In this document: in pieces, positions 1,008-25,284 of the stretch
Position numbering within the stretch: the stretch's first letter is position 1
Layout: every line of letters begins with the position of its first letter
NCBI GenBank assembly: GCA_965224245.1
Contig: OZ245046.1
Coordinates: 3,008,001-3,072,000, forward strand
Source of the DNA: Candidatus Eiseniibacteriota bacterium
GTDB taxonomy: Bacteria > Eisenbacteria > RBG-16-71-46 > CAZAMP01
Length of the DNA stretch: 64,000 nucleotides
Reading direction: 5' to 3'
Program-made: the position numbers and the translations under genes
The notes under the pieces: model-generated
Databases searched by the model: none
Seen by the model: the letters and a program-made list of their open reading frames with translations, nothing else
Told to the model about the DNA's origin: nothing

Positions 1008-2693
1008 TCAGTCGTCCACCCGAACGGGGGTCGACTGGACGCCGGCGGAGTCCCGTGCGGCGCGCGCCCTCAGGAACGCCTGGATCGCATCCGGATCGCG
1101 AGGATCGGGCACCCGTGGCACGACGCCGGCGCTGTCGCTCCGTCCGGGTACGGTGGCCCGGGCTCCCGCGGTCTCGCGCGCCGCGTCGTCCACCGGAGAC
1201 CCCGTGGCCCCGGCCGGTCCATCGGCTCCTTCGGTCGGGTCGCCGGGGTCGGAGGCGTCCGGCACGGGCTCGATCAGGTCCATGGCCCCCTCGGGGATCC
1301 GGTCCGCGAGCCCCTGCGCGATCAGGTACTCGCCGGCCTGCACGGCCTGCTCGGTGCCGGGATACACGTGGAGGATGCGCTCGAAGGACGCCACGATCGA
1401 GTCGGGCGCCGCGTCCCGGGCGCGATGGATCCACGCGCGCGCGAACGCGGCACGCGCCGCCACATCCGAGCCGGCGAACAGGCTCTCGACGCGCGCGTAC
1501 TGCTGAAGCGACCGCAGCGTGTCGGCGTCCTGGAAGAGAAACTGCTCGGCCAGCAGGAACGCGCCCTCTGCATCCACGTCGACGCCGCCCTGGGCGTCCC
1601 GGGTCGTGATGCCGGCCGACACGAGCGGTCGGAGGCGAGCCACGCGCGACTCCGCCTGCTCCGCGAAGACCGATCGCGCCCCGCGCAGGGCCAGCATCTC
1701 GTCGTAGGTGGCCAGCGCCGTCTCGTACTCGCCGTAGCGCATCTCCTGGATGAAGCCGATGCGGAAGAGCGCCTCGCCCGCGTACACGGTGCCCGCGTAG
1801 GTCTCCGCGATCACCCGGTAGTCCGCGATCGCCGCCTCGTGATCACCGAGCTCGCTCCGACACTCGGCGATCTTGAGCTCGATCGGCGCCCGCTTCTCCC
1901 GCGAGAGATCCCGCCCCACGTCGAGCGCCGTGCGATAGGTCTCGAGCCCATCGGCGATCCGGCCGGCTCGGAACAGCGCGTCCCCGGACAGCACGCGCGC
2001 GTCGAGACGGACCTCGAAGGCATCGGCCGTGCGCGTGACCTCGTCGAAGGCCACGTACGCGCTGTCGAACCGCTCGGCCTGCATGTAGAGCTCGCCGAGC
2101 TCCAGAAGCGTCTCCACCCGCTCGCGGTTGCCGGGGTGGCGCTCGATCAGACGCCGGTACGTGACGAGGGCCTCGTCGATCTGATCGGCATCCATGAAGG
2201 CCTTCGCCTCGACGCGAAGGATCTCGGCCTCGCGCGAGGGGGGAATGCCTTCGGCGCGGAGCTGCTGGAAGGTCCGCTTGCCCTCCTCGATGCGACCCAT
2301 GCGGTAGTACGTCACGCCCGCCCAGAACGTCGCCTCCTGTCGGAGGTTGGTGTCGGGATAGCGCTCGACGAGGGCGCGGAACTTGTCGAGCGCCTCGGGA
2401 TAGACGCGCTTGCCGAAGTACGCGCGTCCCATCAGGAGGATGGCGTCGTCCACCCACCGCGATCCGGCGTGACGCTGGATGACCTTGTTGCACTTCTCGA
2501 TCGTCAGGTCGTACTCGGTGACCGCGGAGCCGGCGACCGTCTCGTCGCCGGGGGGGCGCGACTCCTGGATGCGCTCGGCCTTGTCGAAGTGCGCCTGCGC
2601 GTTGTAGAACGTGTTGAAGTACGCGCAGCCGGACACGAGCGCGATCAGGCCGAGCGCTCCGACGACGAGATCAGACCATCGCGTGCTGCTCAC
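1008..2693 (-). CDS. TPR-repeat lipoprotein (PorW/SprE- or BamD-like outer-membrane assembly protein)
   Basis: Lipobox-like LVSGC followed by AYFNTFYNA; many TPR helical pairs (e.g. SRWVDDAILLMGRAYF); low-complexity C-terminus. Confidence 0.75.
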   Translation of the reverse strand: MSSTRWSDLVVGALGLIALVSGCAYFNTFYNAQAHFDKAERIQESRPPGDETVAGSAVTEYDLTIEKCNKVIQRHAGSRWVDDAILLMGRAYFGKRVYPEALDKFRALVERYPDTNLRQEATFWAGVTYYRMGRIEEGKRTFQQLRAEGIPPSREAEILRVEAKAFMDADQIDEALVTYRRLIERHPGNRERVETLLELGELYMQAERFDSAYVAFDEVTRTADAFEVRLDARVLSGDALFRAGRIADGLETYRTALDVGRDLSREKRAPIELKIAECRSELGDHEAAIADYRVIAETYAGTVYAGEALFRIGFIQEMRYGEYETALATYDEMLALRGARSVFAEQAESRVARLRPLVSAGITTRDAQGGVDVDAEGAFLLAEQFLFQDADTLRSLQQYARVESLFAGSDVAARAAFARAWIHRARDAAPDSIVASFERILHVYPGTEQAVQAGEYLIAQGLADRIPEGAMDLIEPVPDASDPGDPTEGADGPAGATGSPVDDAARETAGARATVPGRSDSAGVVPRVPDPRDPDAIQAFLRARAARDSAGVQSTPVRVDD

Positions 2694-4957: not shown

Positions 4958-5503
4958 CTAGTCCATCTCCCGGATGTAGACCGCGTCCTGTCCGTCGATC
5001 TCCTCGAGCTTGACCGAGATGACCTCGCGTCGCGCCGTCGGCACGTTCTTGCCCACGAAGTCGGCCTTGATCGGCAGCTCGCGATGGCCGCGGTCGACCA
5101 GGACCGCGAGCTGAATGGCCTGCGGACGGCCGTAGTCGATGATCGCGTCGAGCGCCGAACGCACCGTGCGCCCCGTGTACAGGACGTCGTCGACCAGGAC
5201 CACGACCATGTCCTCGAGATCGAACATGATGTCGGTGGTGCTCAGCACCGGCTGGTGCGCGATCTTCTCCAGGTCGTCGCGATAGAAGGTGATGTCGAGG
5301 CTTCCGATCGGAAGCTCGACGCCCTCGAACTTCGCGATCTGATCGCGAAGCCGCTCGGCCAGCGGAACACCGCGCCGCCGGATCCCGACGAGCGCGACCC
5401 GATCGGTGCCCTTGTTCCGCTCGACGATCTCGTGCGCGATGCGCACGGTCATGCGCGCCATCTCCTTGGCGTCGATGATCAGGGCCTTCTCTTTCAGGTG
5501 CAC
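4958..5503 (-). CDS. pyrR: bifunctional pyr operon regulator / uracil phosphoribosyltransferase
   Basis: [40 protein letters not shown]. Confidence 0.97.
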
Positions 5504-5605
5504 GTGGGGTCTCCGTCCTCGGACCGGTGGGATGCCAGAGGACGCGCGGGGCCGAGCCGGGTCCCGCGCCGGCGCGGCGGGGATCTCCCGTCGGCGCCGA
5601 CGTGC

Positions 5606-5640
5606 GTCCTTTCCGACCTCACCGGATCGGGTTAAAGGAC
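5606..5640 (-). promoter_or_regulatory. PyrR-binding RNA stem-loop in the pyrR leader
   Basis: Minus strand reads GUCCUUUAACCCGAUCCGGUGAGGUCGGAAAGGAC: CUUUAA plus an AUCCnGnGAGGU-type upper stem-loop and a closing GUCCUUU/AAAGGAC stem, about 100 nt upstream of pyrR. Confidence 0.9.
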
Positions 5641-5795
5641 CGTCGTTCGATGACGCGACGACTCTATCACAGTCGCGCGCCGTCCCGGCGATCCGTTTTC
5701 GTCACCGTGTGGCCAGCGACGGGGGGTTCCGTCACCCACGGACCGGACTGTCGCGATGTTCCGACACACAGCTGGGACCGAGGCGCCACCGGTCG

Positions 5796-5814
5796 GTGGA
5801 TACGAGGTTCCCAC
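5796..5814. promoter_or_regulatory. 19-bp imperfect palindrome, putative enhancer (UAS) for a sigma-54 activator
   Basis: GTGGATACGAGGTTCCCAC, about 150 bp upstream of the -24/-12 site at 5966; resembles three copies at 23729-23846. Confidence 0.55.
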
Positions 5815-5965
5815 CCGTAATCGATTTCGACAGCACCACATACGACGATCGGCGGGGGTGGCGGGTACGCGTGTATCCCCTCGTCCGGCGAGGGCGCCCG
5901 GATGCGTGAATACGGTCGACCGGCTATGACGTGCCCCGCGAGCAAGTTACCGGCGGCGACGAATC

Positions 5966-5980
5966 TGGCACACGCATTGC
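5966..5980 (+). promoter_or_regulatory. sigma-54 (-24/-12) promoter
   Basis: TGGCAC-ACGCA-TTGC is an exact match to TGGCAC-N5-TTGC and lies in an intergenic region. Confidence 0.75.
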
Positions 5981-5991
5981 GTTATGACAGG

Positions 5992-6406
5992 CGCGTGTGG
6001 ATGGGTGGTGTGGATGTGTTAGGCAAAGCCCCGGAATGGACGCGGATGGAGCGCCGGGCGCGAGTGGGAGAAAAGAGCACGGGTCGAGGGAGTTCCGCGC
6101 TCGATGTTCCAGTCGTTTCCATTCCGGTGGCGGCGCCTTCTCTGACGGATGTGCGGAAAGCTCTCGCACGGCGACTACGACACCCGACGAGTGGCTGCCC
6201 GGTTCTGTGAGGCTCCCCCGACTGCTGGATGGTGCCCAGTCCGACTCCGCCTGGTTGCCGGGATGTCACTCTCGCTCGACACGTCGATCTCGCGACCAGG
6301 CGTCCGCGAACGCGAGAGCTTTCCCTTTCGAGTTGAAGGTGGGGCCGACCTCTCGGGCTGATGTTTTGGGAGGGGCGGTCTTGGGGGCCGGCCTTCACCT
6401 TCTTTT
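5992..6406 (+). ncRNA. putative structured non-coding RNA of unknown family
   Basis: Long-range helices CCGGAATGGA(6031-6040)/TCCATTCCGG(6118-6127) and GGAAAGCTCTCGC(6155-6167)/GCGAGAGCTTTCC(6312-6324); terminal hairpin 6335-6402 followed by TTTT; no convincing protein. The 5' end is inferred from the sigma-54 site. Confidence 0.55.
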
Positions 6407-6486
6407 CCCCGAACTCACCACCGACGCCGTCCGACTCTCGCCGCCATCACCGCCACCACCGCGCGTCACGCCGACTCTCACGCACG

Positions 6487-7278
6487 TCACGAGCCCGGCC
6501 TCGCCGCGGGCGCCGCCATCGTCCGTCCCAGTGTCTTCAAGGACTTGAGGCCCCGATACCGCTCCACGTGGTGGGCAATGAAACGCTCCAGAACGCCGGC
6601 CACCTCCGTGGCTGCCGGACGCATCTCGGCCGAGTACGCCCGGGCCACCTCGAGGGCGCGAGCACGCAGGAGAAACCGGAACACGCCGGCGGCCTCGGAC
6701 GACATCGCGTCGGCGGGCGTTCCACTGGACACGCAGGCCGCGCACACGAAGCCGCCGGCGGCGGCCGAGAACAGGCGCGCGGCGCCGGCATCGCCCTCGC
6801 ACACGGCACAGCTCTCGAGCTCGGGCAGGATCCCGAAGCGCGCGCATGCACGCGCCTGAAACCCGCGAAACGTCACCGCGGCGCGCGCTCCGGTGGTCGC
6901 GGCCAGCACCGACAGCGTCTCGGCGAGATCGGCGTAGACGGCGGGCTCGGCATCGTCCTCGGCCAGGAGCAGGTCACACAGCTCGAGCGCGGCGGACGCG
7001 TAGAAGTAGCGCGTGAGATCGCTCTCGAGGCCGTCGTGGTAGTGCAGCACGTCGGCGTGCGCGGCGAGCTGGAGCTCGCGATCGGGGCGATGGTAGTAAA
7101 TCAGCTCGATCTCGCGAAACGGCTCCAGCGCACCCGTGCACGGGTTCCTCGGGGTGCGATAGCCCTTCGAGATGACCCTGAGCTTGCCGACGTCCTCGCC
7201 GAAGAGCACCGCGATTCGGCTCGTGTCGCCGAACGGGATCCGCTTCAGGAGATAGGCTCTCGTCCGGCGTAGCGCCAT
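6487..7278 (-). CDS. recO: DNA repair protein RecO
   Basis: N-terminal OB-fold pattern (LLKRIPFGDTSRIAVLF), ALEPF, and Zn-finger CAVC...FVCAAC. Confidence 0.92.
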   Translation of the reverse strand: MALRRTRAYLLKRIPFGDTSRIAVLFGEDVGKLRVISKGYRTPRNPCTGALEPFREIELIYYHRPDRELQLAAHADVLHYHDGLESDLTRYFYASAALELCDLLLAEDDAEPAVYADLAETLSVLAATTGARAAVTFRGFQARACARFGILPELESCAVCEGDAGAARLFSAAAGGFVCAACVSSGTPADAMSSEAAGVFRFLLRARALEVARAYSAEMRPAATEVAGVLERFIAHHVERYRGLKSLKTLGRTMAAPAARPGS

Positions 7279-12660: not shown

Positions 12661-13118
12661 GTGATCTCCGTCAGGCGCCCGCGCAGACGCTCGATCCAGG
12701 CCCGAAGGCGCTCGACGTGCGCACGCTCGGCCAGTCGCATCCTCCGGCGTCCCGCCGACGTGTCGTGCTCGTAGCCGAGAAGGTGCAGGAGGCCGTGCAC
12801 GAGAAGCCGCGTCAGCTCGTCGGCCACGTCGTGGCGATAGCGCGGCGCCTGGGCGATGGCGCGGTCGGTGCTGATGATCACCTCACCGATGTGGCGATGC
12901 GGGCCGAGCGAGTCGCTCGGGAACGCCAGCACGTCCGTGGGGCGCGGCTTTCCGCGATACATCTCGTTCAAGGATGCGAGCAGCGCATCGTCTCCGAGCA
13001 CGACACTCACCTCGTCGACGTCGGGCGCCTCGGCAACCACGATGCGCCGCGTCATCGCACCGACGATGCGGCCCGATCGGGGCAGGCGTTTCTGGCGATC
13101 AGCGACCGAGACGTCCAC
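12657..13118 (-). CDS. ybeY: rRNA maturation endoribonuclease YbeY
   Basis: LNEMYRGKPRPTDVLAFP and HGLLHLLGYEH; start inferred at GTG 13118. Confidence 0.93.
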   Translation of the reverse strand: MDVSVADRQKRLPRSGRIVGAMTRRIVVAEAPDVDEVSVVLGDDALLASLNEMYRGKPRPTDVLAFPSDSLGPHRHIGEVIISTDRAIAQAPRYRHDVADELTRLLVHGLLHLLGYEHDTSAGRRRMRLAERAHVERLRAWIERLRGRLTEIT

Positions 13119-15513
13119 GGGCGGCTCCCCGAGTCCTGGTCGCCGAGCGCCGGGCATCGGCCCCGTCGCCGTCGCCGCCGACCACCTCGAGATCCGACGT
13201 CCGCGGGGGCCGGGCCGCCAGCGTGTCCACGTCCGATCCGCTGCGCACGTCCACCGGCTCGGCGTTGGCCAGCGCCGCGTCGGGCGAGATCGCGTCACGA
13301 TCCAGCGTCTCGACCTCCGGCGGCGAGGTCCCGCCGTCGGAATCGGTCGGGTAGCGGACGCGACCGTGGAACATCCCCGTCAGGACCAGTACGAACGCCT
13401 CCCGGATCCGGGCGAGGTCGGCCAGCGTGAGACCGCACTCCTCGAGCTCGCCGGCCTCGACACGCGACTCGATGATCCGCGTCACGAGCCCGCGAATGCG
13501 CGACGGCTTGGGATCGGTCAGCACGCGGCTGGCCGCCTCCACGCCGTCGGCCAGCATCACGGTCGCGGTCTCCTTGCTTCGGGGACGTGGCCCGGGGTAA
13601 CGGAAGTCGTCGCGATCCACGTTCGGATCGGCGGCCTTGGCCTTCTGGTAGAAGAACGCCATCTCCGAGGTGCCGTGATGCTCGCGAATCGCGTCGATCA
13701 GAACCTCGGGGAGCTTGTGCTCCTTGGCGAGCTGTACGCCCTCGCGCACGTGGCTCTCGAGAATGAGACAGCTCATCGACGGCGTGAGCCGATCGTGCGG
13801 GTTTCTGGCCCTCGGGTTCATCGCGATGTTCTCGATGAAGTACTCCGGCTTCTGCACCTTGCCGATGTCGTGGTAGTAGCACATGACCCGTCCGAGCAAC
13901 GAGTTCGCGCCCACCTGCTCGCATCCGGCCTCGACGAGCGTCCCCATGACCATGCTGTGGTGGTACGTCCCCGGCGCCTCCAGCATCAGTCGCTTCAAGA
14001 GGGGTCGATTGAGATCGGAGAGCTCCAGCAGCCGGAGATCGGTGGTGACGCCGCACACGACCTCCAGGATCGGCATCAGCGTGATGGCGATCACGGTCGA
14101 GAGCGCGGCGTTCACGAGCGCCCAGCCGCTGTCGGTGACCATGTCGAGACCCAGATCCCCGCGCATCATGGCCAGGGCGGACACCGTGAACACGTACGCC
14201 ATCGACACCAGGAGGAGCGCCCGGAACACCTCGGAGCGATGACGGACCCGCTGAACCGCGTACACGCCGGTGAACCCGCCGACCAGGGAGCCGGCCACGA
14301 AGTCGAGCCCGAGCCCCGCGTTGAGCGCGAGCATCACGACCGACACGAGGGTGAAGAACACTCCCAGCTGAGCGTCGATCAGAAGGCTCACCACCATCGA
14401 CCCCGCGGCAACCGGGATCAGGAGCCACGGTAGCTGGATCGCGTTCAGCACCACCGCCGCGCTGCCGAACACCACCAGCGCCGTGATCGCCAGGAGCATC
14501 AGCTTGCCGGTGTCGGCGTACACGCGCGGGCGGTGCAGTCGGATGTAGACGATGCAGAACACCAGAATGGCGGCACTCAGGAGCACCCGGCCGGCGACGG
14601 CGATCCCGGACTTCCAGCGCGCGTCCATCCCACGCCGGGACTCGAGCTCGGCCTGGAGCGCTCCGAGCATCTGTACGACGTCGGGCGTGATGCGATGTCC
14701 ACCCTCGACGATGTTCTCGTTGGGCAGCACGCGGCGCGCGACCGGAGACACCGACGCGATCTCGGTGGCCTCGGCCCGCTCGGTCGTGACCCGGTCGTAG
14801 ACCAGATTGGGCTCCAGGAACGCGGTCACCAGCGCGCGGAAGGCGGCGCCGGCGAGATCGTCGTCCCGGAACTCCAGGCGCGCGAGCGCCTGGGCATCGC
14901 GCGCGATGCGGCTGTCGTTGTAGATCTCGCCGCGCAGGTTCACCAGTGAGTAGCGTCCCTCGGACCACAGCATGTGACGCATCGAGGTGCGGACCTTCTG
15001 CGCGGCCACCTCGTCGGCGTAGCCGGCACGGAGCACGTCGTCGATGAAGCTCCGGGCCACGCGCATGACCTCGGCGCGGCGCTCGTCGTCGAGTAGCGCG
15101 CGGCGGGAGCGGTCCGGCAGATCCACGCCGGCCTCGCCCAGGTGGATCAGCGCGGTGAGCGTGTCCGACCTCGACTCGGTCGCGATCGCGTCCGCGCGCG
15201 CGCGATAGTCGTCGAACCTGGCCAGGACGCGCGCCTTCACCGGCTCCGAGCGCTGGAAGTAGGCGGGGACGTCTTCCAGGGCGCGCTTGCGTTCGGCGGC
15301 CAGCTGGGCGTCGCTCTTGGGGACGTCGAACTCGAAGGGCGCCACGATCGTCTCGGGCGCGATGCCACCCTCGTGAAACCCCTCGAAGTGAGAGACCTCG
15401 GTCTGATCGGGAAACAGGAAGATGGCCGCGGCCAGAACCACCACCGCCAGCGCGAACCGGCGCAGCTGGAGCCAGCGCGACCGGAGCCCCTTGCCGCCGG
15501 TGCCCGACCTCAT
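13099..15513 (-). CDS. 7TM-HD phosphohydrolase (PgpH-like, HDIG domain)
   Basis: Extracytoplasmic domain, multiple TMs, APGTYHHS, YYHDIGK, HHGT, FRYPGPRP, MLADGVEAA. Start ATG 15513 overlaps the phoH stop. Confidence 0.9.
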   Translation of the reverse strand: MRSGTGGKGLRSRWLQLRRFALAVVVLAAAIFLFPDQTEVSHFEGFHEGGIAPETIVAPFEFDVPKSDAQLAAERKRALEDVPAYFQRSEPVKARVLARFDDYRARADAIATESRSDTLTALIHLGEAGVDLPDRSRRALLDDERRAEVMRVARSFIDDVLRAGYADEVAAQKVRTSMRHMLWSEGRYSLVNLRGEIYNDSRIARDAQALARLEFRDDDLAGAAFRALVTAFLEPNLVYDRVTTERAEATEIASVSPVARRVLPNENIVEGGHRITPDVVQMLGALQAELESRRGMDARWKSGIAVAGRVLLSAAILVFCIVYIRLHRPRVYADTGKLMLLAITALVVFGSAAVVLNAIQLPWLLIPVAAGSMVVSLLIDAQLGVFFTLVSVVMLALNAGLGLDFVAGSLVGGFTGVYAVQRVRHRSEVFRALLLVSMAYVFTVSALAMMRGDLGLDMVTDSGWALVNAALSTVIAITLMPILEVVCGVTTDLRLLELSDLNRPLLKRLMLEAPGTYHHSMVMGTLVEAGCEQVGANSLLGRVMCYYHDIGKVQKPEYFIENIAMNPRARNPHDRLTPSMSCLILESHVREGVQLAKEHKLPEVLIDAIREHHGTSEMAFFYQKAKAADPNVDRDDFRYPGPRPRSKETATVMLADGVEAASRVLTDPKPSRIRGLVTRIIESRVEAGELEECGLTLADLARIREAFVLVLTGMFHGRVRYPTDSDGGTSPPEVETLDRDAISPDAALANAEPVDVRSGSDVDTLAARPPRTSDLEVVGGDGDGADARRSATRTRGAARGRLGR

Positions 15514-16493
15514 GGCTCGTCGCCCGCGACGCCGTCCGCCGCGGCCGTGTCGAACGCCCGGATGATGTCCTTGACCAGCTGGTGGCGCACCACGTCGACG
15601 TCGGTGAAGTGCACGAACGAGACACCGTCGACCTCGGACAGGATCGGCTCGATCTGGATCAGGCCCGAGTCCGACCGAACGGGGAGGTCCACCTGCGTCA
15701 CGTCGCCGGTGACGACCGCGCGCGATCCCAGCCCCAGCCGGGTCAGGAACATCTTCATCTGCCGGAGCGTGCTGTTCTGGGCCTCGTCGAGAATCACGAA
15801 CGAGCGCGCGAGCGTGCGGCCGCGCATGAAGGCCAGCGGCACGATCTCGATCACGTTCGTGGTCAGGAGCTTCTGCAGTCGTTCGTACGTGATCACGTCC
15901 TCGAGTGCGTCGTAGAGCGGACGCAGGTAAGGATCGATCTTCTCCTGGAGATCGCCCGGCAGGTACCCGAGCTTCTCTCCGGCCTCGACGGCGGGACGCG
16001 CCAGGACGAGGCGATCCACTTGACGAGCCTTGAGCGCCGAGACCGCCATCGCCACCGCGAGATAGGTCTTCCCGGTGCCGGCCGGCCCGATCCCGAACAC
16101 GATGTCGTTGGACGCGATCCGTCGCAGGTACTCCGCCTGCATCGAGGTGCGGGGCTTGACGACCTTGCGGTCGAAATGGAGGACGAGATCGTCGTCGGCG
16201 TCCGGCGCCCCACCGACGTCCCGGCGTCCGGTCAGGAAGTCCTGGAAGTCGGTCTCGGAGAGCGGGCGTCCGGATCGGACGCGCTCGAGCAGCCCGACGA
16301 TGAAGCGCTCGGCACGATCGAGCGAATCTCCGTGCCCGAACACCCGGAGCGTCCCGTTCCGGACGACGACGGAGACGTCGAAGGTCTTCTCGATGGCACG
16401 GAGATTCTGGTCGCGCTGGCCGAGCAGCGTCAGCGAGTCGGCGCCGTCCAGCGCGATCGTGCGCGAGGCGGGTTCCGATCGATCTTCGTGCAT
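15510..16493 (-). CDS. phoH: PhoH family ATPase
   Basis: GPAGTGKTYLA, RPAVEAGE, PLAFMRGRT, ILDEAQN. Confidence 0.95.
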   Translation of the reverse strand: MHEDRSEPASRTIALDGADSLTLLGQRDQNLRAIEKTFDVSVVVRNGTLRVFGHGDSLDRAERFIVGLLERVRSGRPLSETDFQDFLTGRRDVGGAPDADDDLVLHFDRKVVKPRTSMQAEYLRRIASNDIVFGIGPAGTGKTYLAVAMAVSALKARQVDRLVLARPAVEAGEKLGYLPGDLQEKIDPYLRPLYDALEDVITYERLQKLLTTNVIEIVPLAFMRGRTLARSFVILDEAQNSTLRQMKMFLTRLGLGSRAVVTGDVTQVDLPVRSDSGLIQIEPILSEVDGVSFVHFTDVDVVRHQLVKDIIRAFDTAAADGVAGDEP

Positions 16494-18307
16494 CAGCTCC
16501 CCGAGTTGGGCGATCGGCTCGACGGGCCGTCGTCGAGCTCGATCCGGACGCGAAGCTCGTGGAGCTCCGCGGCGTCGACCGGCGCCGGCGATCCATCCAT
16601 CAGGGACGCCGCGCTCGTGGTCTTCGGGAACGCGACGGTGTCTCGAATGGACGTCGACCCGGATAGAATCATGATAATACGCTCGAGCCCCAGCGCAATA
16701 CCCCCGTGCGGCGGTGCGCCGTAGTCGAATGCTCTCAAGAGGAACCCGAAGCGGCGGTGGGCCTCCTCGATGTCCATGCCGATGAGCCCCAGGATCTTCT
16801 CCTGCAGCGTGCGCTCGTGGATCCGGATGCTACCCGAGCCCAGCTCGACACCATCCAGCACCAGATCGTAGAGCTGGGCGCGCACCGCGTCGGGCTCGGA
16901 GTCCAGCATCGCGATGTGGTCGGCCCTCGGCATCGTGAAGATGTGATGGCACGGCGCAAGCGCGCCGGTCACCGGATCCCGCTCCAGCAGCGGGAAATCG
17001 TTCACCCACAGGATCCGGTGATCGCCCGGCGCCGGTGGATGGAACGCGCGCCCGAGGTCCAGGCGCACCGCCCCCAGAGCCGTGCACGCGGTGGACCAGG
17101 CATCGGCCACGAACAGGAGCGTGTCCCCGTCGGAGGCCCCGCACGCGCCCAGGATCGCGCGCTGCTCGCTGAGCGAGAGGAACTTGGCGATGCCCGAGTC
17201 GAGCGTGTCGCCCGCGACCTTCGTCCGCGCGAGACCCTTGGCGCCGTAGCGCTTGGCGGTTGCCTCGAGCTCGTCGAGCGCCTTCCGGGACAGCGTGTGC
17301 TCGGCGGGCACGCGGAGCCCCTTGACGACTCCACCCGCCTCGATCGCGCCCGCGAACGCCCGGAACTCGGTGCCGCGAACCGCGTCGGTCACGTCCGCCA
17401 GGTGCAGCTCGAACCGGATGTCCGGCTTGTCGGATCCGTACGTGTTCATCGCATCGTGATAGCCGAGTCGCGGAAACGGCGTCTCGAGCTCGAGGCCGGC
17501 CGCCTCGGAGAAGATGGCCGCCATCAGTCCTTCGACCAGCGCGTAGACGTCCTCCTCCTGGACGAAGCTCATCTCGAGGTCGATCTGGCTGAACTCGGGC
17601 TGCCGGTCGGCCCGCAGGTCCTCGTCGCGCATGCACCGGGCGATCTGGTAGTAGCGATCGAAGCCCGCGACCATCAGGATCTGCTTGTAGAGCTGGGGCG
17701 ACTGCGGCAGCGCGTAGAACGATCCCGGCCTGATCCGGCTGGGCACGACGTAGTCCCGTGCCCCTTCCGGCGTCGGGCGGACGAGCATCGGCGTCTCGAT
17801 CTCGGCGAACGATTCGCGATTCAGGTAGCGTCGCGTGGCCTGGCAGACCTCGTGACGCCGCATGAGGATCGCCTGCAGCGCGGGCCGCCGGAGGTCGAGG
17901 TAGCGGTACTTGAGGCGCAGGTCCTCGGACGCGGAGTCGTGCTCGTCCAGTCCGAACGGCGGCACCTCGGAGGCGTTCAGGATCTCCAGCGCCTCGGCCC
18001 GCAGCTCGATCGCGCCGGTCGCCAGCTCGGCGTTCTGCATCTCGCCCGGCCGTGCCGCGACCACGCCCTCGACGGCCACCACGAACTCGCTCCGGAGCTT
18101 GGCGGCCGTCTGCATGACCGTCTCGGGCACCTCGGTCGCATCGAACGTGACCTGCGTCAACCCGTACCGGTCTCTGAGGTCCACGAACACGACGCCACCT
18201 TTGTCGCGATGACGATGCACCCAGCCGTTGAGGCGGACGCGCTGTCCCTCGTGCTCGCGGCGCAGCTCGCCGCACGTATGTGTTCGCGACCGAGTCCCCG
18301 TGCCCAT
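16493..18307 (-). CDS. aspS: aspartate--tRNA ligase
   Basis: RTHTCGELR, FVDLRDRYG, RLKYRYLDLRR, YALPQSPQLYKQ, RDEDLRADRQPEF, GAPPHGGIALG; start ATG 18307. Confidence 0.97.
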   Translation of the reverse strand: MGTGTRSRTHTCGELRREHEGQRVRLNGWVHRHRDKGGVVFVDLRDRYGLTQVTFDATEVPETVMQTAAKLRSEFVVAVEGVVAARPGEMQNAELATGAIELRAEALEILNASEVPPFGLDEHDSASEDLRLKYRYLDLRRPALQAILMRRHEVCQATRRYLNRESFAEIETPMLVRPTPEGARDYVVPSRIRPGSFYALPQSPQLYKQILMVAGFDRYYQIARCMRDEDLRADRQPEFSQIDLEMSFVQEEDVYALVEGLMAAIFSEAAGLELETPFPRLGYHDAMNTYGSDKPDIRFELHLADVTDAVRGTEFRAFAGAIEAGGVVKGLRVPAEHTLSRKALDELEATAKRYGAKGLARTKVAGDTLDSGIAKFLSLSEQRAILGACGASDGDTLLFVADAWSTACTALGAVRLDLGRAFHPPAPGDHRILWVNDFPLLERDPVTGALAPCHHIFTMPRADHIAMLDSEPDAVRAQLYDLVLDGVELGSGSIRIHERTLQEKILGLIGMDIEEAHRRFGFLLRAFDYGAPPHGGIALGLERIIMILSGSTSIRDTVAFPKTTSAASLMDGSPAPVDAAELHELRVRIELDDGPSSRSPNSGS

Positions 18308-18321
18308 CGAGTCCCTCTCCT

Positions 18322-18717
18322 TCAACCCGCGAAACGTCCCGGCCACCCGTGCGACCAGAACGACTTCCCGAAGACCACGCCCGAGACGACACCCACCGCA
18401 TCGGCGAGAAGGTCCCCGACCGATGCGTCCCGGCCCGGCACGTGGCTCTGTATCCATTCGTCGGTCAGGCCCACCGCGATCCCGATCGCGATCGCGATCG
18501 TCGCCGCCGTGATTCCCGTCCCCGTGCGCGGTCCGGATGCCCGCCACAGCAGAAGACCCAGGACGCCGTATGCGGTCGCATGAAGGACCTTGTCCAGCCC
18601 GTAGACGTCGGGGCCCGCCGCCGACGGCCGGGAGGAGGCGACCAGGAGGAGCGCCGCGTAGGCGATCGCCGGGCCTCGTCGGGAGAGCCACCCGGTGCGA
18701 CTCGCGCCCTCGGACAT
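18322..18717 (-). CDS. VanZ family membrane protein
   Basis: DKVLHATAYG, DEWIQSHVPGR, DLLADAVG. Confidence 0.85.
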   Translation of the reverse strand: MSEGASRTGWLSRRGPAIAYAALLLVASSRPSAAGPDVYGLDKVLHATAYGVLGLLLWRASGPRTGTGITAATIAIAIGIAVGLTDEWIQSHVPGRDASVGDLLADAVGVVSGVVFGKSFWSHGWPGRFAG

Positions 18718-19190
18718 CACGCGCGTGACGCCTCTTCCTTTCGGGCGATCGCGGCAATCGCATCCTGGGGCGTCCGGACCGACAGCAGCCGGCTTTGCAA
18801 CTCGCCATCGTAGAGCAACTTCGAAACGCGGGCGAGCACCCGGACGAAGCCGCCCCGCTCTTCCGGACCCAGAATCATGAAGACCAGGTTGACCGGGCGG
18901 CCGTCCAGCGCCTCGAATTCGATCGGCGTCGAGGGTCGGACGAGCCCCACCGCGAGCCGCTTGACCGCCGAGCACTGGGCGTGCGGAATGGCCACGCCGC
19001 CGCCGATCCCGGTGGACATGACCCGCTCACGCTTCATCACCGCCTCCAGCGCGGCCGCGGCGTCGGTGGTCAGATCCGCCTCGCGAAAGAGCTCGATGGA
19101 GTCGTGGATGAGCGCTTCTTTCGTTCGAACGCTCGCCCCCAGGGACACGCAGCGCTCGTCGATGAGGTCCACGAGCTTGAGTGTGATCAC
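18717..19190 (-). CDS. PTS EIIA domain protein (PtsN/fructose-type IIA)
   Basis: KRERVMSTGIGGGVAIPHA (phospho-His motif), FEALDGRPV; start approximate. Confidence 0.9.
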   Translation of the reverse strand: MITLKLVDLIDERCVSLGASVRTKEALIHDSIELFREADLTTDAAAALEAVMKRERVMSTGIGGGVAIPHAQCSAVKRLAVGLVRPSTPIEFEALDGRPVNLVFMILGPEERGGFVRVLARVSKLLYDGELQSRLLSVRTPQDAIAAIARKEEASRA

Positions 19191-19329
19191 GTTGCAGTCC
19201 CCGTGCCCTCGTCGAGGCACTCGGCTAAGAGTCCATCCGGTGCGACGTTCGAAATCGAAGGCAGCGAATTTAGCACGCTCACGGGAGCGGTCCAAGCCGG
19301 ATTCCGGCCCCACATACGGCTTTTGACGG

Positions 19330-20061
19330 CTAATCGGGATCGAACACGACGCGGATCGACGTCCAGGCCGCATGTGGGCGACCGCCCCGACGGGCCGGCT
19401 CGAAGCGCGCGCGCGACGCCACGGCCAGTGCCGGGGCCCGGAACTCGTCCGGGACCGCGACCGCATCGTCGGGAATCTCGGCGTCGGAGACCCGGCCGTC
19501 GGCATCGACCCTCACGCGAACCTCGACCACGACCACGCCCCGCGACCGCGAGGCCTCGGGGTAGTGGGCCGCCGGAAGGGCGACGACGACCGGGCGCGTG
19601 GCGTCGCCCTGGCCGCCCGATTCGGTGACGGACGACAGGGCCGGGCGCGCCGCGGACGATCGTGTTCCGTCGAGCCGCTCCCACGCGGCGCGGGCGGCCG
19701 GCCCTTCGGACCGCTCGGACGGACCGGTCACCTCCGGAGGGGTCTGGAGCGGGGTGTCCGCCGGCTCGGGGCGGGGCTCGGGCGGAGGCTCGGCCACGTC
19801 CGGGAGATCCGGAGGGTGTGCGAGATCATCCGCCCCGGTGGGTGCGCCATCGGCGGACGGGATGGATTCGCGGGCGATCGCGACGACGTGAATGGGATCG
19901 TGCGAGGCGAACGACACCGATGCAGCGCCGATGGCGCCCCGATCGGTGTCGCCGAGCGAGCGGACGAGGTCGGCGGGAACGAGCCAGAGCACGGCACCGT
20001 GGATCACGCAGGCCGCCGCCGTCGATGCGATCCGGTGTCGACGAGGCGGTCGCCGGCGCAT
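19330..20061 (-). CDS. TonB-like energy transducer
   Basis: N-terminal TM with His (CVIHGAVLW), Pro-rich linker, C-terminal YPEASRSRGVVVVEVRVRVDADGRV...FEPA. Confidence 0.75.
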   Translation of the reverse strand: MRRRPPRRHRIASTAAACVIHGAVLWLVPADLVRSLGDTDRGAIGAASVSFASHDPIHVVAIARESIPSADGAPTGADDLAHPPDLPDVAEPPPEPRPEPADTPLQTPPEVTGPSERSEGPAARAAWERLDGTRSSAARPALSSVTESGGQGDATRPVVVALPAAHYPEASRSRGVVVVEVRVRVDADGRVSDAEIPDDAVAVPDEFRAPALAVASRARFEPARRGGRPHAAWTSIRVVFDPD

Positions 20062-20068
20062 GATCGGG

Positions 20069-23000
20069 TCAGGCGCGGCGGTCCAACCCGTAGCGCGCGA
20101 TCTTGTTCTTGAGTCCCTTGCGACTGAGACCCAGCGCCACCGCGGCCCGGCTCTTGTTCCAGGCGTTGTCCTCGAGCGCACGCTGGACGATCTGGCGCTC
20201 GATGCCGTCGAGCTGCTCGCGGAGCGAGACTCCAGTGCGAGCCGGCGGCTCGGGGGCGAGCGTCACCTCGCTTTCCAGAAGACGCGACGGCAGCAGGTCG
20301 ATTCCGATGGTCTCGTTCTCGTCGGCGAGCGTCACCGCCCGACGCATGACCTTCTCCAGCTCGCGCACGTTTCCGGGCCAGTCGTACTCGACGAGCTTCT
20401 GCATGGCGATGCGGGAGATGCCCTTGATTGTCTTGTCCAGCTTCTGGGCGAAGACGTCCGAGAAGAACTCGGCCAGGAGCGGAATGTCGTCCTTGCGACG
20501 ACGCAGCGACGGGACGTGGATCGTGATGTCGTTCAGGCGGAAGTAGAGGTCCTTCAGGAACCGTCCCTCGGCCACCTCACGCCGGAGATCGGCGGACGTC
20601 GCGCAGACGATCCGGATGTCCAGGGGACGGTAGGCGTGGCCGCCCACGGCCCGGACCTCGCCCGAGTCGAGCAGGTGCAGGAAGCGCCGCTGGACCTCGA
20701 GCGTGGTCTTGTCGATCTCGTCGATGAACACCGTGCCGCCCTCGGCCTCCTCCAGGATGCCCTTGCGATCGTGTGTGGCGCCGGTGAACGCGCCCTTCAC
20801 GTGACCGAAGAGCTCGCTCTCGAGCACCGATTCCGACAGAGCCGCGCAGTCCACGGTCGTCAGCGCGGCGTCCGCGCGCGAGCTGCAGAGATGAAGCGCG
20901 CGCGCGATCAGCTTCTTGCCGGTCCCGGTCTCGCCCTGGAGCAGCACGCTGAGGTCGCTGTCGGCCACGCGGCTGACGAGGCCGAGGATCGAGCGCATCT
21001 CGGCGTTCTCGGTGACGATGTCCGCCAGCGCGATGGACCGGTCGATGCGATCGAGCTCCCGCAGGCCGCGACGGTTTCGAATGCTCGCTTCCTCCAGGAA
21101 CCCCGCCAGCTGCCGGGCCAGCGTCATGCAGTAGCTGACCTCGGCCTGATGGAACTCCGGATTGCCGGCGTCCAGCACGCGGTCGACGTAGAGCACGCTC
21201 CACACGCCGGCGCTCTCGCGCAGGGGTACCGCGATCGCGGACTCGACCTCACGCCCGCTGGCCAGGGGGCCCAGGCTGCGTCGCTTGTTCCCACTGGCCA
21301 TGCCCAGGAACACCGCCGGACGGTCGCTGGCCGGCCAGCCGGCCGTGAACGCCGACGGGCGGGCGAACGACCTGCCGATGGAGAGCGCCGGGATGCCGTG
21401 GGCGCCGATCACTCTCACGTCCGTGCTCGCCACGTCGAGCATGCTCGCACCGGCACACGGGATCGTGGCGGTGAGCACGCCGAGGAACTCGGAGATCTTG
21501 TCGTCGAAGGACCGATCGGACTTCAGCACGCGCTCCATCTTCTGGTGCGCGTCGAGGCTGTCCTTCGTCGACACGGCGTTCTCGACGAACGTGCACTCCA
21601 GACGCTGCTGCACCTCGCTCAGCTGATCGTCGAGCGCTCGGGCCCCGTCGAGCGTGCCCAGGAGCTCACGTGCCCGTCCGAGACGCTCGGCCGCGCGATC
21701 GACGGCGCGGTGCCGGATGTCCTCGTCGGCGATCGCCAGGAGGGTGCGGAACTCGGCCCGCGGGTGACGCAGCGCGCGGTACCCGTCGAGCGCGTCCTGG
21801 AGGTGCTGGACGCCGCTGATGCGGGTGCGGTCGTCGGTGGACTCGAGCTCCAGGCGTCCCCGGAACTCGATGACGCGGGTGAGCCAGAACGACTCGCCGG
21901 CGCGGCGCAGGATCTCGACCGCCTGGCGAGCGGCCTCATCGGCCCGCGCGTGATCTCCGGCTCCGGCGTGCAGCTCACCGATCGTCAGGAGGAGGCGCGC
22001 TTCCAGAAGCCGGTTGCTGGTGGTCCTGGCGGACTCGAGCCCGCGGGACGCCACCGTGAACGCCTCGCCCTCGCGTCCCTCCAGCGCCCTGACCCGTGCG
22101 ATGACGCGGTCCAGCTCGCCCTCGAGACGGTTGCGCCCCAGGCGCGCCGAGATGTCGGCCGCCTTGGCCGCGAAACCGGCTGCGTCCGCCGCGTTGCCGG
22201 CGCCCAGCGCCGACTCGGTGAGACCGAGATACGCGGACAGCATGCCGTAGAGGTGCTGCTGCAGGGCGCTCAGCTCGAGCGCGCTCCAGAACAGCTCGCG
22301 CGCGCGATCGTATTCCTCGCGCATCAGATGAACGTCGGCCTTGCCCGCCAGCGCGAGCGCGGAGCTCGCCGCGTCGCCGATCTCGCGGGACTTGCGGTGC
22401 GATTGCTCGAAGTCGTCGAGGGCCTCGTCGAGCTGACCCAGCATGGTGTGCAGGATGCCCTGGGTCTGGAGCACGGCCGGCAGCCCGGAGTAGTCCCCCT
22501 CGATCGACATGAGGTTCTGGGAGACCTGGCAACACTCGAGCGCGCGGCTCCAGTTGCACGCGCGGCGGTGAAGCATGCCGATGTTTCGGTAGATGCGCGC
22601 GACGTTGGACAGGCTCCCGAGATCCTTGAAGACGGTCAGGGCGTCCTGGTACATGCGCATGGCCGTGTCGACGTCGTCGCCGCGGTGGGCGATGCTGCCA
22701 CGCAGCTGGAGTGCCTGGCCCAGCTCGAGGCACGGCTCGGTGTCGACGAGGAGGTGCATGGCCGCGTCGACGTTCCGGGTCGCCTCGCCCAGCTGGCCGC
22801 GGCGGGTGCGAACCCGCGCGAGCTGAAGCTCGATCCGCACGCGCTCGATCAGCGGCGTGGCCTCGGTCATCGCGTGAGCGGCCTCGAGCGCCGTCGACTG
22901 CGCGTCGACGGCCTCTCCCAGACGAAGCTGGCAGTCGCTGATGCGACGCAGCACGGACGCGCGCAGCCGGGCGCCGTCACCGTTCAACGTCGCGAGTGCT

Positions 23001-23167
23001 TCGCGATAGTGCTGGACGGCGCCGGCGAAGTCGGCGCTCTCTGCGGAGAGGTCGCCGAGCTCGATCAGCCGCGCGCCGGTCGGTCGCGATCGGTCGGTGT
23101 CGTTGGGATCGCCGGCGGACGGCGCCTGGGCGGTCCGGTCGACGTTTCGAGCCTCATGCGTAGCCAT
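20069..23167 (-). CDS. sigma-54-dependent enhancer-binding protein with N-terminal TPR array, GAF-like region, AAA+ and Fis-type HTH
   Basis: Walker A GETGTGK, ESELFGHVKGAFTGA (intact GAFTGA), Walker B VFIDEI, WPGNVREL, HTH NKSRAAVALGLSR; roughly 550 aa of TPR-like helices at the N-terminus and no receiver domain. Confidence 0.93.
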   Translation of the reverse strand: MATHEARNVDRTAQAPSAGDPNDTDRSRPTGARLIELGDLSAESADFAGAVQHYREALATLNGDGARLRASVLRRISDCQLRLGEAVDAQSTALEAAHAMTEATPLIERVRIELQLARVRTRRGQLGEATRNVDAAMHLLVDTEPCLELGQALQLRGSIAHRGDDVDTAMRMYQDALTVFKDLGSLSNVARIYRNIGMLHRRACNWSRALECCQVSQNLMSIEGDYSGLPAVLQTQGILHTMLGQLDEALDDFEQSHRKSREIGDAASSALALAGKADVHLMREEYDRARELFWSALELSALQQHLYGMLSAYLGLTESALGAGNAADAAGFAAKAADISARLGRNRLEGELDRVIARVRALEGREGEAFTVASRGLESARTTSNRLLEARLLLTIGELHAGAGDHARADEAARQAVEILRRAGESFWLTRVIEFRGRLELESTDDRTRISGVQHLQDALDGYRALRHPRAEFRTLLAIADEDIRHRAVDRAAERLGRARELLGTLDGARALDDQLSEVQQRLECTFVENAVSTKDSLDAHQKMERVLKSDRSFDDKISEFLGVLTATIPCAGASMLDVASTDVRVIGAHGIPALSIGRSFARPSAFTAGWPASDRPAVFLGMASGNKRRSLGPLASGREVESAIAVPLRESAGVWSVLYVDRVLDAGNPEFHQAEVSYCMTLARQLAGFLEEASIRNRRGLRELDRIDRSIALADIVTENAEMRSILGLVSRVADSDLSVLLQGETGTGKKLIARALHLCSSRADAALTTVDCAALSESVLESELFGHVKGAFTGATHDRKGILEEAEGGTVFIDEIDKTTLEVQRRFLHLLDSGEVRAVGGHAYRPLDIRIVCATSADLRREVAEGRFLKDLYFRLNDITIHVPSLRRRKDDIPLLAEFFSDVFAQKLDKTIKGISRIAMQKLVEYDWPGNVRELEKVMRRAVTLADENETIGIDLLPSRLLESEVTLAPEPPARTGVSLREQLDGIERQIVQRALEDNAWNKSRAAVALGLSRKGLKNKIARYGLDRRA

Positions 23168-23922: not shown

Positions 23923-25284
23923 ATGGATCGACCCAGCATGAGTCGTCAGCGCATCGATTATCGCCGCCTGCTTGCCGAGGTGATCCCGCGCGGTCCCCTG
24001 CCGGACGACGTTCGGGTGGCCGTGGATACGGCGCTGGCGTCCCCGACCGAGCCGGCGTGCGAGCGTGTCGCCCGGCTGGCCATCGACTCCCTGGTCGCGG
24101 TGGGGCGCCTCGAACGTCTCGACGACCCCGACCCGCAGCGCGCGGTCGAGCGCTACGTCGATACGGCGACCGGTGACACGATCACCGTCCAGTGGACGGT
24201 GGCCACCCGGGCCGAGCGGATCGTGCGCGTGGCGATCCCCCCCGACGCCGGACGCCACGCGCTCGATCTGGAATCGGTCCGCGAGATACTCGACATCGAT
24301 CAGCACCTGTTCCAGGCCGACGGCCGGTCCCCGAACCCGTACGGCGAGATCGTCCGGGCCGCGCTGGCGCGGGTCACTCAGCTCACGGGAGCGGACTTCG
24401 TCACGTTCGTGCCCGCAGAGCGCCTCTCACACCCGGGGACGCCGGACTTCGGCCTCCCCGAGACCCCGCCGGAACGCGTTGCGCCGCTCAGGCGACTGGC
24501 CCCCCCGGCCGAACGGTCGGCGGTATACGTCCCGGACGTCGCGTACGACGATGATCTCGTCGCGATCGCGCCGGCGGCGGACTTCGCCTCGGTCGCGTTC
24601 GCCGGGGTCGGACGCGATGCGACCTCCATCGATGGGTACCTGGAGGCGTGGAGCCGCTCGCGCGACTTCCTGGATGCCGACGGGCTGACGGCGTTCGCGC
24701 TGTTCGCCGATCGCCTCTCGGCCACGCTGCGCAAGGCCTCGGTGCTCGAGCTGCTCGTGTACCACGACGCGCTGACCGGGCTCCACAATCGCAGCTACTT
24801 CAACCAGCAGATCGCCAAGGAGGTCGCACGCGCGCGCCGTGCGGGCCAGAGCTTCGCGCTCGCGATCGCCGACATCGACGACTTCAAGGGGATCAACACC
24901 CGGTACGGGTACCACGGCGGGAACGACGTTCTCGAGCAGGTGGGGCGCCTCGTCCGCGCGTCGGTGCGGCCGTTCGACGTGGCCGCACGCTGGGGCGGCG
25001 AGGAGTTCGCCCTGGTCCTGACCGCCCCCATCGACGAGCAGGGCGCGATCGCGGTCAGCAACCGGATCCGCGAGTCGGTCAAGGCCACGTCGTTCGCCGT
25101 GACCGACCTGGAGCAGACTACCCACGTCGTGCCGATCACGATCTCGGTGGGCGTCTCGGTGTTTCCATCCGACGCGAGCGCGCCCGAGGAGCTCTGGGCC
25201 ACGGCCAACGCGGCGCTCGGACAGGCCAAGCGCCGGGGCAAGAACCGGGTCGTCGCCGCCTCCTCGCGGGGTGAGGTCGCCTGA
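23923..25284 (+). CDS. GAF-like sensor diguanylate cyclase
   Basis: HDALTGLHNR, DIDDFKGIN, RPFDVAARWGGEEF (active site plus RxxD I-site), AKRRGKNRV. Confidence 0.92.
   Translation: MDRPSMSRQRIDYRRLLAEVIPRGPLPDDVRVAVDTALASPTEPACERVARLAIDSLVAVGRLERLDDPDPQRAVERYVDTATGDTITVQWTVATRAERIVRVAIPPDAGRHALDLESVREILDIDQHLFQADGRSPNPYGEIVRAALARVTQLTGADFVTFVPAERLSHPGTPDFGLPETPPERVAPLRRLAPPAERSAVYVPDVAYDDDLVAIAPAADFASVAFAGVGRDATSIDGYLEAWSRSRDFLDADGLTAFALFADRLSATLRKASVLELLVYHDALTGLHNRSYFNQQIAKEVARARRAGQSFALAIADIDDFKGINTRYGYHGGNDVLEQVGRLVRASVRPFDVAARWGGEEFALVLTAPIDEQGAIAVSNRIRESVKATSFAVTDLEQTTHVVPITISVGVSVFPSDASAPEELWATANAALGQAKRRGKNRVVAASSRGEVA

Follow-up and report, generated by a model that had tools for sequence, protein, structure and literature searches.

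The stretch of DNA analyzed here (referred to as the window; 64,000 nucleotides of a Candidatus Eiseniibacteriota genome of 6.94 Mb, 68.6% G+C, and 97.4% completeness) carries a noncoding element between pyrR (4958-5503, minus strand) and recO (6487-7278, minus strand; Pfam RecO_N/RecO_C), which leave a gap of about 980 nt. This element is probably an RNA gene that depends on sigma-54 and is functional in one way or another, and, judged from sequence comparison, it is a new small RNA (sRNA) family of a known kind restricted to one order. That order comprises just two species genomes, namely, the window's own genome (G000) and the sole other genome of the order (G001); further copies were detected on two metagenome contigs (X5 and X6). 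As to how the RNA may act, the reading that we prefer, tentatively, is that of a stand-alone, sigma-54-dependent RNA that would act in trans, using the invariant apex of its 5' rod to base-pair with C/U-rich segments of mRNAs. The features of the unit are as follows.

5966-5980, plus strand: sigma-54-type (-24/-12) promoter TGGCAC-N5-TTGC, exact match (TGGCACACGCATTGC)
5992-6406, plus strand: inferred transcript of about 415 nt (about 290-300 nt in G001), with putative start and end
6031-6127, plus strand: 5' rod domain with outer helix 6031-6045/6113-6127 (z-score -4.45 in G000 and -4.55 in G001)
6071-6097, plus strand: invariant apical block of 27 nt, AAAAGAGCACGGGTCGAGGGAGTTCCG, identical at 27/27 positions in G001 and with no variant listed in X5 or X6
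6143-6156, plus strand: second short conserved block, TGACGGA-N3-GCGG, identical except for the 3 middle bases in the alignment with G001
6155-6324, plus strand: lineage-specific rod of 170 nt, closed by a perfect 13-bp helix (6155-6167/6312-6324); part of the minimum free energy (MFE) fold, z-score -2.57
6334-6406, plus strand: 3' hairpin and T-rich tail, a putative intrinsic terminator, including a conserved block at 6368-6393

The promoter motif and its conservation are clear at the sequence level. As stated in the initial annotation, the TGGCAC-N5-TTGC promoter is exact, and it is the sole match in the window, in which 0.07 matches are expected and at least one was obtained in 7 of 100 shuffles. 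The syntenic position of G001 has TGGCAT-N5-TTGC, with GG at -24 and GC at -12 in the spacing of a sigma-54 promoter. In X5, CACACGCATTGC stands at the beginning of a loose end of 25 nt; it corresponds to the -12 half of the promoter and is spaced as in the window, and 10 of the 13 positions that follow, around the presumed start, differ. Sigma-54 signaling is clearly central to the biology of this host, since G000 encodes one rpoN (a single Sigma54_DBD match, 220 bits) and about 35 strong enhancer-binding proteins (42 Sigma54_activat matches, of which 35 at E<=1e-40); rpoN is also present in G001. The G000 genome contains 14 strict TGGCAC-N5-TTGC sites and 22 TGGCAY-N5-TTGC sites, the site at 5966 among them. 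For eight of these 22, one of the 32 enhancer-binding-protein genes is no more than 2.5 kb away, compared with about 0.5 expected by chance, and 16 are followed within 130 nt by an open reading frame (ORF) rich in G+C at third codon positions (GC3). As far as such associations can tell, the consensus marks credible promoters elsewhere in the genome, and the site at 5966 is among the few that have no ORF behind them. Another such "orphan" TGGCAC-N5-TTGC site was noted outside the window (G000:C1:4044640, plus strand); no ORF follows for about 250 nt, and a strong GC hairpin with TTTTTGTGTG is found about 140 nt downstream. It is a candidate for a second sigma-54-driven sRNA, with no sequence likeness to the RNA studied here when compared by eye.

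At sigma-54 promoters in general, transcription starts about 12 nt after the GC. We infer transcription from this promoter, with the start placed by that geometry and the end by the 3' hairpin and its T-rich tail. The initial annotation saw no credible protein behind the promoter, and this agrees with the flat GC-frame profile, as the spread is at most 0.18 over 5500-6460 compared with 0.45-0.65 in pyrR and 0.22-0.60 in recO, and with the Pfam search, in which the 7 ORFs that overlap the gap had no match at E<=0.1. The region 5500-6460 is noncoding. The unit has what is generally expected of an sRNA gene: it is noncoding, has its own promoter and a putative terminator, the T tail of which is weak, and lies between unrelated genes.

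That the transcript nevertheless encodes a small protein is scarcely credible. Two frames come into question, and both have a counterpart in G001. The first is the ORF of 13 codons at 6104-6145, which reads MFQSFPFRWRRLL and, according to the initial annotation, could make the RNA dual-function; G001 likewise has a 13-codon frame after the 27-nt block, and in both genomes this frame ends at the conserved TGACGGA. The second is opened, again in both genomes, by a TTG that lies 6-7 nt past GGGAGG and extends over 57-59 codons (about 57 from TTG 6381 in G000). However, the peptides are unrelated between the genomes in both cases, so that the idea of a dual function loses its ground, and the spacing between the SD (Shine-Dalgarno)-like element and the start is 11 nt in one genome and 4 nt in the other. 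The GC3 of the TTG frames is about 71% (hand count), compared with about 90% in real genes of this region. Since the 27-mer shows no change at any codon position, the constraint appears to be on the nucleic acid and not on a protein.

The second line of evidence is conservation. About 30 kb of the G001 contig C2 is collinear with window positions 1-25,000, and the RNA element sits between pyrR and recO in both genomes. When the two intergenic regions of about 1 kb were compared by blastn, only three blocks were obtained at E<=0.01: the 27-mer (27/27 identical), which in G001 lies about 95 nt beyond TGGCAT-N5-TTGC in the syntenic place; the PyrR-binding hairpin of the pyrR leader (29/31); and the 3' hairpin at 6368-6393 (23/27). 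Being a functional RNA site, the PyrR-binding hairpin provides an internal positive control. The sediment contig X5 spans 5994-6168 and differs from the window by 7 substitutions and 2 indels; the aquatic contig X6 spans 6035-6168, with 6 substitutions and 3 indels. Over the 5' domain, both are about 95% identical to the window, whereas the sequences directly bordering this domain do not reach the 80% likeness threshold, and neither contig aligns any longer after 6168. Sequence and structure are thus conserved beyond the neutral background in two divergent sequences (G000 and G001) and two near-identical fragments (X5 and X6), on which all statements on conservation rest. Apex, outer helix, and 3' hairpin are thereby shown to be under purifying selection.

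Homologs beyond these were sought at several levels, and the RNA is, as far as sequence searches reach, known from one small bacterial order only. A BLAST search of the region against 41 relatives returned G001 as the only real match. With a 23-mer and up to 3 mismatches, 4 of 206 class genomes were matched, of which only G000 and G001 are real, all other matches being at 3 mismatches and hence at the level of the reversed-pattern control; a 24-mer matched 2 of 172 phylum genomes (the phylum set equals the class set). These genome counts include the unpublished G053, which contributes to negative results only. Among 56 other class genomes with PyrR, the pyrR-flanking loci of 28 (about 1.5 kb on each side) showed no such promoter or motif upstream of pyrR. 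A metagenome scan with a 22-mer produced 4 loci, all attributable to chance, with neither promoter nor common flanks, and a scan of genome contigs with promoter plus loop produced 17 loci, of which 16 were chance matches and the only real one was G001's own record. No paralogs were detected at the BLAST level in G000 or G001.

The third line of evidence comes from the predicted fold. The 10-bp helix 6031/6127 and the 13-bp helix 6155/6324 proposed in the initial annotation are both present in the MFE fold, the former as CCGGAAUGGA/UCCAUUCCGG at 6031-6040/6118-6127. The further pairings suggested within the middle rod (GAGUGGC/GUCACUC and CCCGGU/GCCGGG) are possible, yet they lie outside this fold. 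In G000, the sub-domains have z-scores of -4.45 (5' domain), -2.57 (170-nt rod), and -3.09 (3' hairpin), values that are flattered because the windows were cut at the helices. The outer helix of the 5' rod was misaligned between G000 and G001 by MAFFT. In a two-row alignment of these genomes, RNAalifold kept 22 pairs, of which 13 are unchanged, 4 have one-sided changes, 5 are compensatory, and none is broken, the gaps in this alignment having been placed for the best consensus energy, which favors pairing. Four of the 5 compensatory pairs fall in the outer helix 6031-6045/6113-6127. In X5 and X6, the change of C to T at 6059 converts a G-C pair into G-U.

The apical loop of the 27-nt block is predicted to be largely unpaired and bears the motif AGGGA, the GGA of which has an unpaired probability of 0.63 in G000 and 0.72 in G001; in the G001 MFE fold, an apical hairpin presents GUCGAGGGAGUU. 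A second, degenerate copy of GGGAG-purines-GGTCGAGGG was noted in G001 just upstream of the invariant block (L002, about 1538-1562, minus strand), with 80% identity over 25 nt to window positions 6066-6090, which suggests that the apex arose or grew by tandem duplication. The three-domain anatomy of the initial annotation applies to G000 but cannot be generalized. In place of the 170-nt rod, G001 has an unrelated linker of about 65 nt. The rod diverges in X5 and X6, and no other copy of it exists in the G000 genome; we read it as a lineage-specific expansion. The predicted terminal hairpin with a U tract was found at 6382-6406, with the terminator-like site at 6382-6397 and the tail CCTTCTTTTC. 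The z-score of the 3' hairpin is -2.10 in G001, where the antisense strand has -0.05. Overall, the plus strand folds 7-14 kcal/mol more stably, owing to G-U pairs, and this agrees with the direction of the promoter.

These data also bear on the view, which we consider unlikely, that a genuine promoter drives an RNA without a function in itself, in which case the conserved blocks would be protein sites at the DNA level or transcription would matter only by interfering with the divergent pyrR or the convergent recO. The z-score of the whole transcript is near zero, its middle is freely replaceable between genera, and with a weak terminator, read-through into antisense recO is conceivable in G000. 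However, enhancer sites are expected upstream of the promoter, and the conserved blocks are found 90-400 nt past it. The maintenance of pairing in the outer helix through changes on both strands, together with the greater stability of the plus-strand fold, argues against this view, and recO is not adjacent to the RNA in G001. The pyrR leader was considered as a duplex partner and rejected, as 28 of 40 shuffles gave an equally good duplex in G001.

According to the preferred reading, sigma-54 RNA polymerase would transcribe the gene from the promoter at 5966-5980 once an enhancer-binding protein fires, and transcription would stop at the 3' hairpin (6334-6406). The working part would be the 5' rod (6031-6127), the invariant 27-nt apex of which would expose its G-rich, SD-like loop. 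This loop may then base-pair with C/U-rich segments of target mRNAs, such as the anti-SD arm of a self-inhibited leader. Base pairing is preferred because a G-rich, SD-like loop fits activation by an anti-antisense mechanism and because most known sigma-54-dependent sRNAs, among them Qrr, GlmZ, and NcS25, act by base pairing. Action as a stand-alone gene is favored since synteny of the whole block places the element between pyrR and recO in both genomes and since the next gene in G000 is convergent.

Several observations weigh against this reading. Ribosome-binding sites, which sRNAs usually target, are not open to pairing with a loop rich in G. No target emerged in the genome, where the longest complement of the 27-mer has 14 nt, as expected by chance. 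As for an upstream enhancer site, no inverted repeat or shared k-mer stood out when G000, G001, and the other 21 promoters were compared. The initial annotation described the RNA as highly structured; this applies to its sub-domains, but the whole 421 nt folds at -191 kcal/mol compared with -188.8 kcal/mol for shuffles (z-score -0.34; 33 of 100 shuffles as good). Two divergent and two near-identical sequences are too few for a statistical test of covariation, and the choice of gaps in the two-row alignment favors pairing. The apex differs between the two MFE folds; in G000, the G001-type hairpin lies 3.9 kcal/mol above the MFE. The T tail is not strong in G000 and is even weaker in G001 (AGTTTCC). 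Finally, Hfq (PF17209) was not found in the 97.4%-complete G000 genome, which differs from the Hfq requirement of Qrr. One individual candidate target, rsgA, was tried and rejected: the 14-nt identity of the loop to the ribosome-binding site of G000 rsgA is lost in the rsgA of G001.

A possible but rather less probable alternative is that the RNA serves as a protein decoy or platform by means of two SD-like GGGAG elements, one in the apical loop and one in the 3' hairpin, with CsrA as the candidate protein that would be titrated or delivered upon sigma-54 activation. The initial annotation counted eight GGA triplets in 5999-6091, and this count is exceptional, as the genome mean is 1.83 per 93-nt window and only 0.03% of the windows reach 8; in G001, 7 GGA triplets are found in the first 92 nt. 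The motif A-N-GGA occurs in both invariant short blocks (AGGGA at 6087 and ACGGA at 6145), and likewise in G001. The identity of the 27-mer, which includes stem bases, resembles that of the neighboring protein-bound PyrR hairpin (29/31). CsrA is encoded in both genomes. The single csrA of G000 directly follows fliW in a cluster of flgN-like, fliW, csrA, and flagellin-like genes (L030, 283-2672; G000:C1:1316921-1319310) that lies 41 nt behind a TGGCAC-N5-TTGC site, and two more such sites and an enhancer-binding-protein gene are found just downstream of the cluster. From these sites, flagellar genes and csrA appear to be sigma-54 controlled, and CsrA and the RNA may share this control. Mimicry of a flagellin leader by the RNA was also considered and dropped: the sole Flagellin_N match in G000 follows csrA and has one ACGGAGGA at its SD sequence, whereas a different gene follows csrA in G001.

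On the other hand, most GGAs of the 5' domain have near-zero unpaired probability because they form the purine strand of the stable rod helix: in the partition-function fold of G000, three of the eight have values of 0.00-0.01, and another three do not exceed 0.47. The only GGAs exposed in both species are the apical AGGGA and the 3'-hairpin GGGAGG (0.60 and 0.97). Passages of PMC7652899 describe CsrA sites as GGA motifs in the loops of short hairpins, mostly hexaloops on stems of at most 4 bp, state that affinity for CsrA drops when the GGA is paired or the loop has additional bases, and place the repeats of CsrB in loops or single strands; by this account, the 12-nt loop on a long, stable rod is unlike a CsrA site. 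According to the same passages (PMC7652899), the known CsrA antagonist where FliW exists is the FliW protein, and the CsrA in question is FliW linked. Searches of Rfam revealed no CsrB/Rsm match even at E<=10. The analogy to CsrB/Rsm drawn initially thus holds for the density of GGA motifs but is weakened by their pairing and the lack of an Rfam match, and the RNA is not filed under this class because its GGAs are mostly paired, its loop is unlike CsrA sites, and its CsrA is FliW linked. In terms of a model, a two-site CsrA interaction is possible. The more specific proposal that the RNA is a sigma-54-driven antagonist of FliW-type CsrA, in which the two invariant SD-like GGGAG elements would capture one CsrA dimer, has to be regarded as distinctly improbable.

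The gene order downstream of the element differs between the two genomes and raises the question of a cis-acting function. In G001, an extra aminotransferase gene (L002, 3-1121, minus strand) is located between the RNA element and recO, in the same orientation as the RNA and about 205 nt past the 3' hairpin. It is absent from the G000 locus, and its nearest homolog in G000 has 35% identity and is 2.7 Mb distant; the difference corresponds to an insertion or a loss within the otherwise collinear block of about 30 kb. The element might therefore be a leader, or the relic of one, whose downstream gene was kept in G001 and lost in G000, and the 3' hairpin, which pairs CCUCYC with GGGAGG, is reminiscent of an expression platform that sequesters an SD sequence. 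There is little to recommend this explanation, since G000 has no plus-strand gene downstream of the element, where recO is convergent, its only aminotransferase homolog is remote, and the 5' domain is still about 95% identical in the G000-like X5 and X6. The TTG frames after GGGAGG have unrelated peptides and a low GC3. In G001, the AT-richer stretch between the hairpin and the aminotransferase gene contains a TACAAT-like box (by eye), which suggests that this gene has its own promoter.

Compared with known RNA families, the element stands apart. At gathering thresholds, the only Rfam match in the whole window is a tRNA, and at E<=10, the region 5450-6550 and its G001 equivalent gave only the sub-threshold PyrR site and spurious miRNA or snoRNA hairpin matches. 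The initial view of a noncoding, sigma-54-type unit without a known family is therefore borne out, with purifying selection in addition, and homologs were found in syntenic position in G001 and on X5 and X6. One close parallel is Qrr of Vibrio, which is driven by sigma-54 and LuxO. Like the RNA studied here, Qrr is a stand-alone sRNA gene behind a -24/-12 promoter, with a long, absolutely conserved internal block amid diverging sequence; this block has about 32 nt in Qrr and 27 nt in the present RNA. In contrast to Qrr, the present RNA is 3-4 times longer, has its conserved block, which is G rich, on the apex of a rod, occurs in one copy per genome (at the BLAST level), and has no Qrr match in Rfam at E<=10. 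GlmY and GlmZ of the Enterobacteriaceae are also sigma-54 driven, but differ in size and fold, and no Rfam match to them was found. Of the two, one makes a ribosome-binding site accessible through anti-antisense pairing and the other serves as a protein decoy, and these two modes are the ones weighed here. NcS25 of Burkholderia is an example of a lineage-restricted, sigma-54-dependent base-pairing sRNA; it belongs to a proteobacterial, Hfq-type system, and no similarity to it was detected by sequence or model.

The CsrB/CsrC/RsmX-Z RNAs share with the present RNA the high GGA density, and CsrA is encoded in both genomes, where two A-N-GGA motifs of the RNA are invariant. They differ in that the GGAs of the present RNA are mostly paired in a stable helix, its CsrA is FliW linked, and its promoter is of the sigma-54 type; CsrB/Rsm promoters depend on GacA/UvrY. 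Of the two genes that the initial annotation proposed to look for, csrA is present in G000, in the fliW-csrA cluster, and no Hfq match was found. The likeness to 6S RNA is limited to the middle domain, a rod of about 170 nt. This rod is not conserved, there is no RF00013 match at the locus, and the canonical 6S RNA of G000 is encoded elsewhere (L089; C1:1389857-1390043, plus strand; full model, 66.2 bits compared with a cut-off of 46.4), so that the 6S analogy was abandoned.

Further observations concern the neighborhood. The leader of pyrR (window 5606-5640, minus strand) contains a PyrR-binding attenuator hairpin that is identical at 29 of 31 positions between G000 and G001 and scores below the Rfam cut-off (28.5 bits compared with 54 in G000; 31.1 bits in G001); the Rfam PyrR model seems to under-score the sites of this phylum. 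The enhancer-binding-protein gene nearest to the promoter (20069-23167, minus strand) lies at a distance of 14.8 kb, within the block of about 30 kb that is collinear throughout. Nothing was found to connect the RNA with the peptide/activator cassette of which, in the initial annotation, it was possibly the output. The enhancer-binding-protein gene encodes a protein of 1032 aa with N-terminal TPR repeats, followed by Sigma54_activat, AAA_lid_14, and HTH_8, and adjoins a gene for a PTS EIIA-2 (PtsN-like) protein (the pair spanning window 18717-23167, minus strand); the pair is syntenic in G001. The same syntenic block contains a 1165-aa seven-transmembrane receptor with an intracellular HD hydrolase domain (13099-16596, minus strand) and a GGDEF diguanylate cyclase (23923-25284, plus strand).

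No regulatory RNA came up among the papers listed under the name Eisenbacteria, which were ecological or genomic surveys. We consider the finding useful rather than surprising, as it concerns an RNA of a known kind in one order only. Should the RNA prove to antagonize FliW-type CsrA, it would add an RNA input to a partner-switch circuit that is thought to be controlled by the FliW protein only, and this would occur in a phylum without studied riboregulation. In more general terms, a conserved, sigma-54-driven RNA would, if real, represent a post-transcriptional output of the sigma-54 network of this host, and anyone with transcriptomes or cultures of this order would have a small and concrete object to study.

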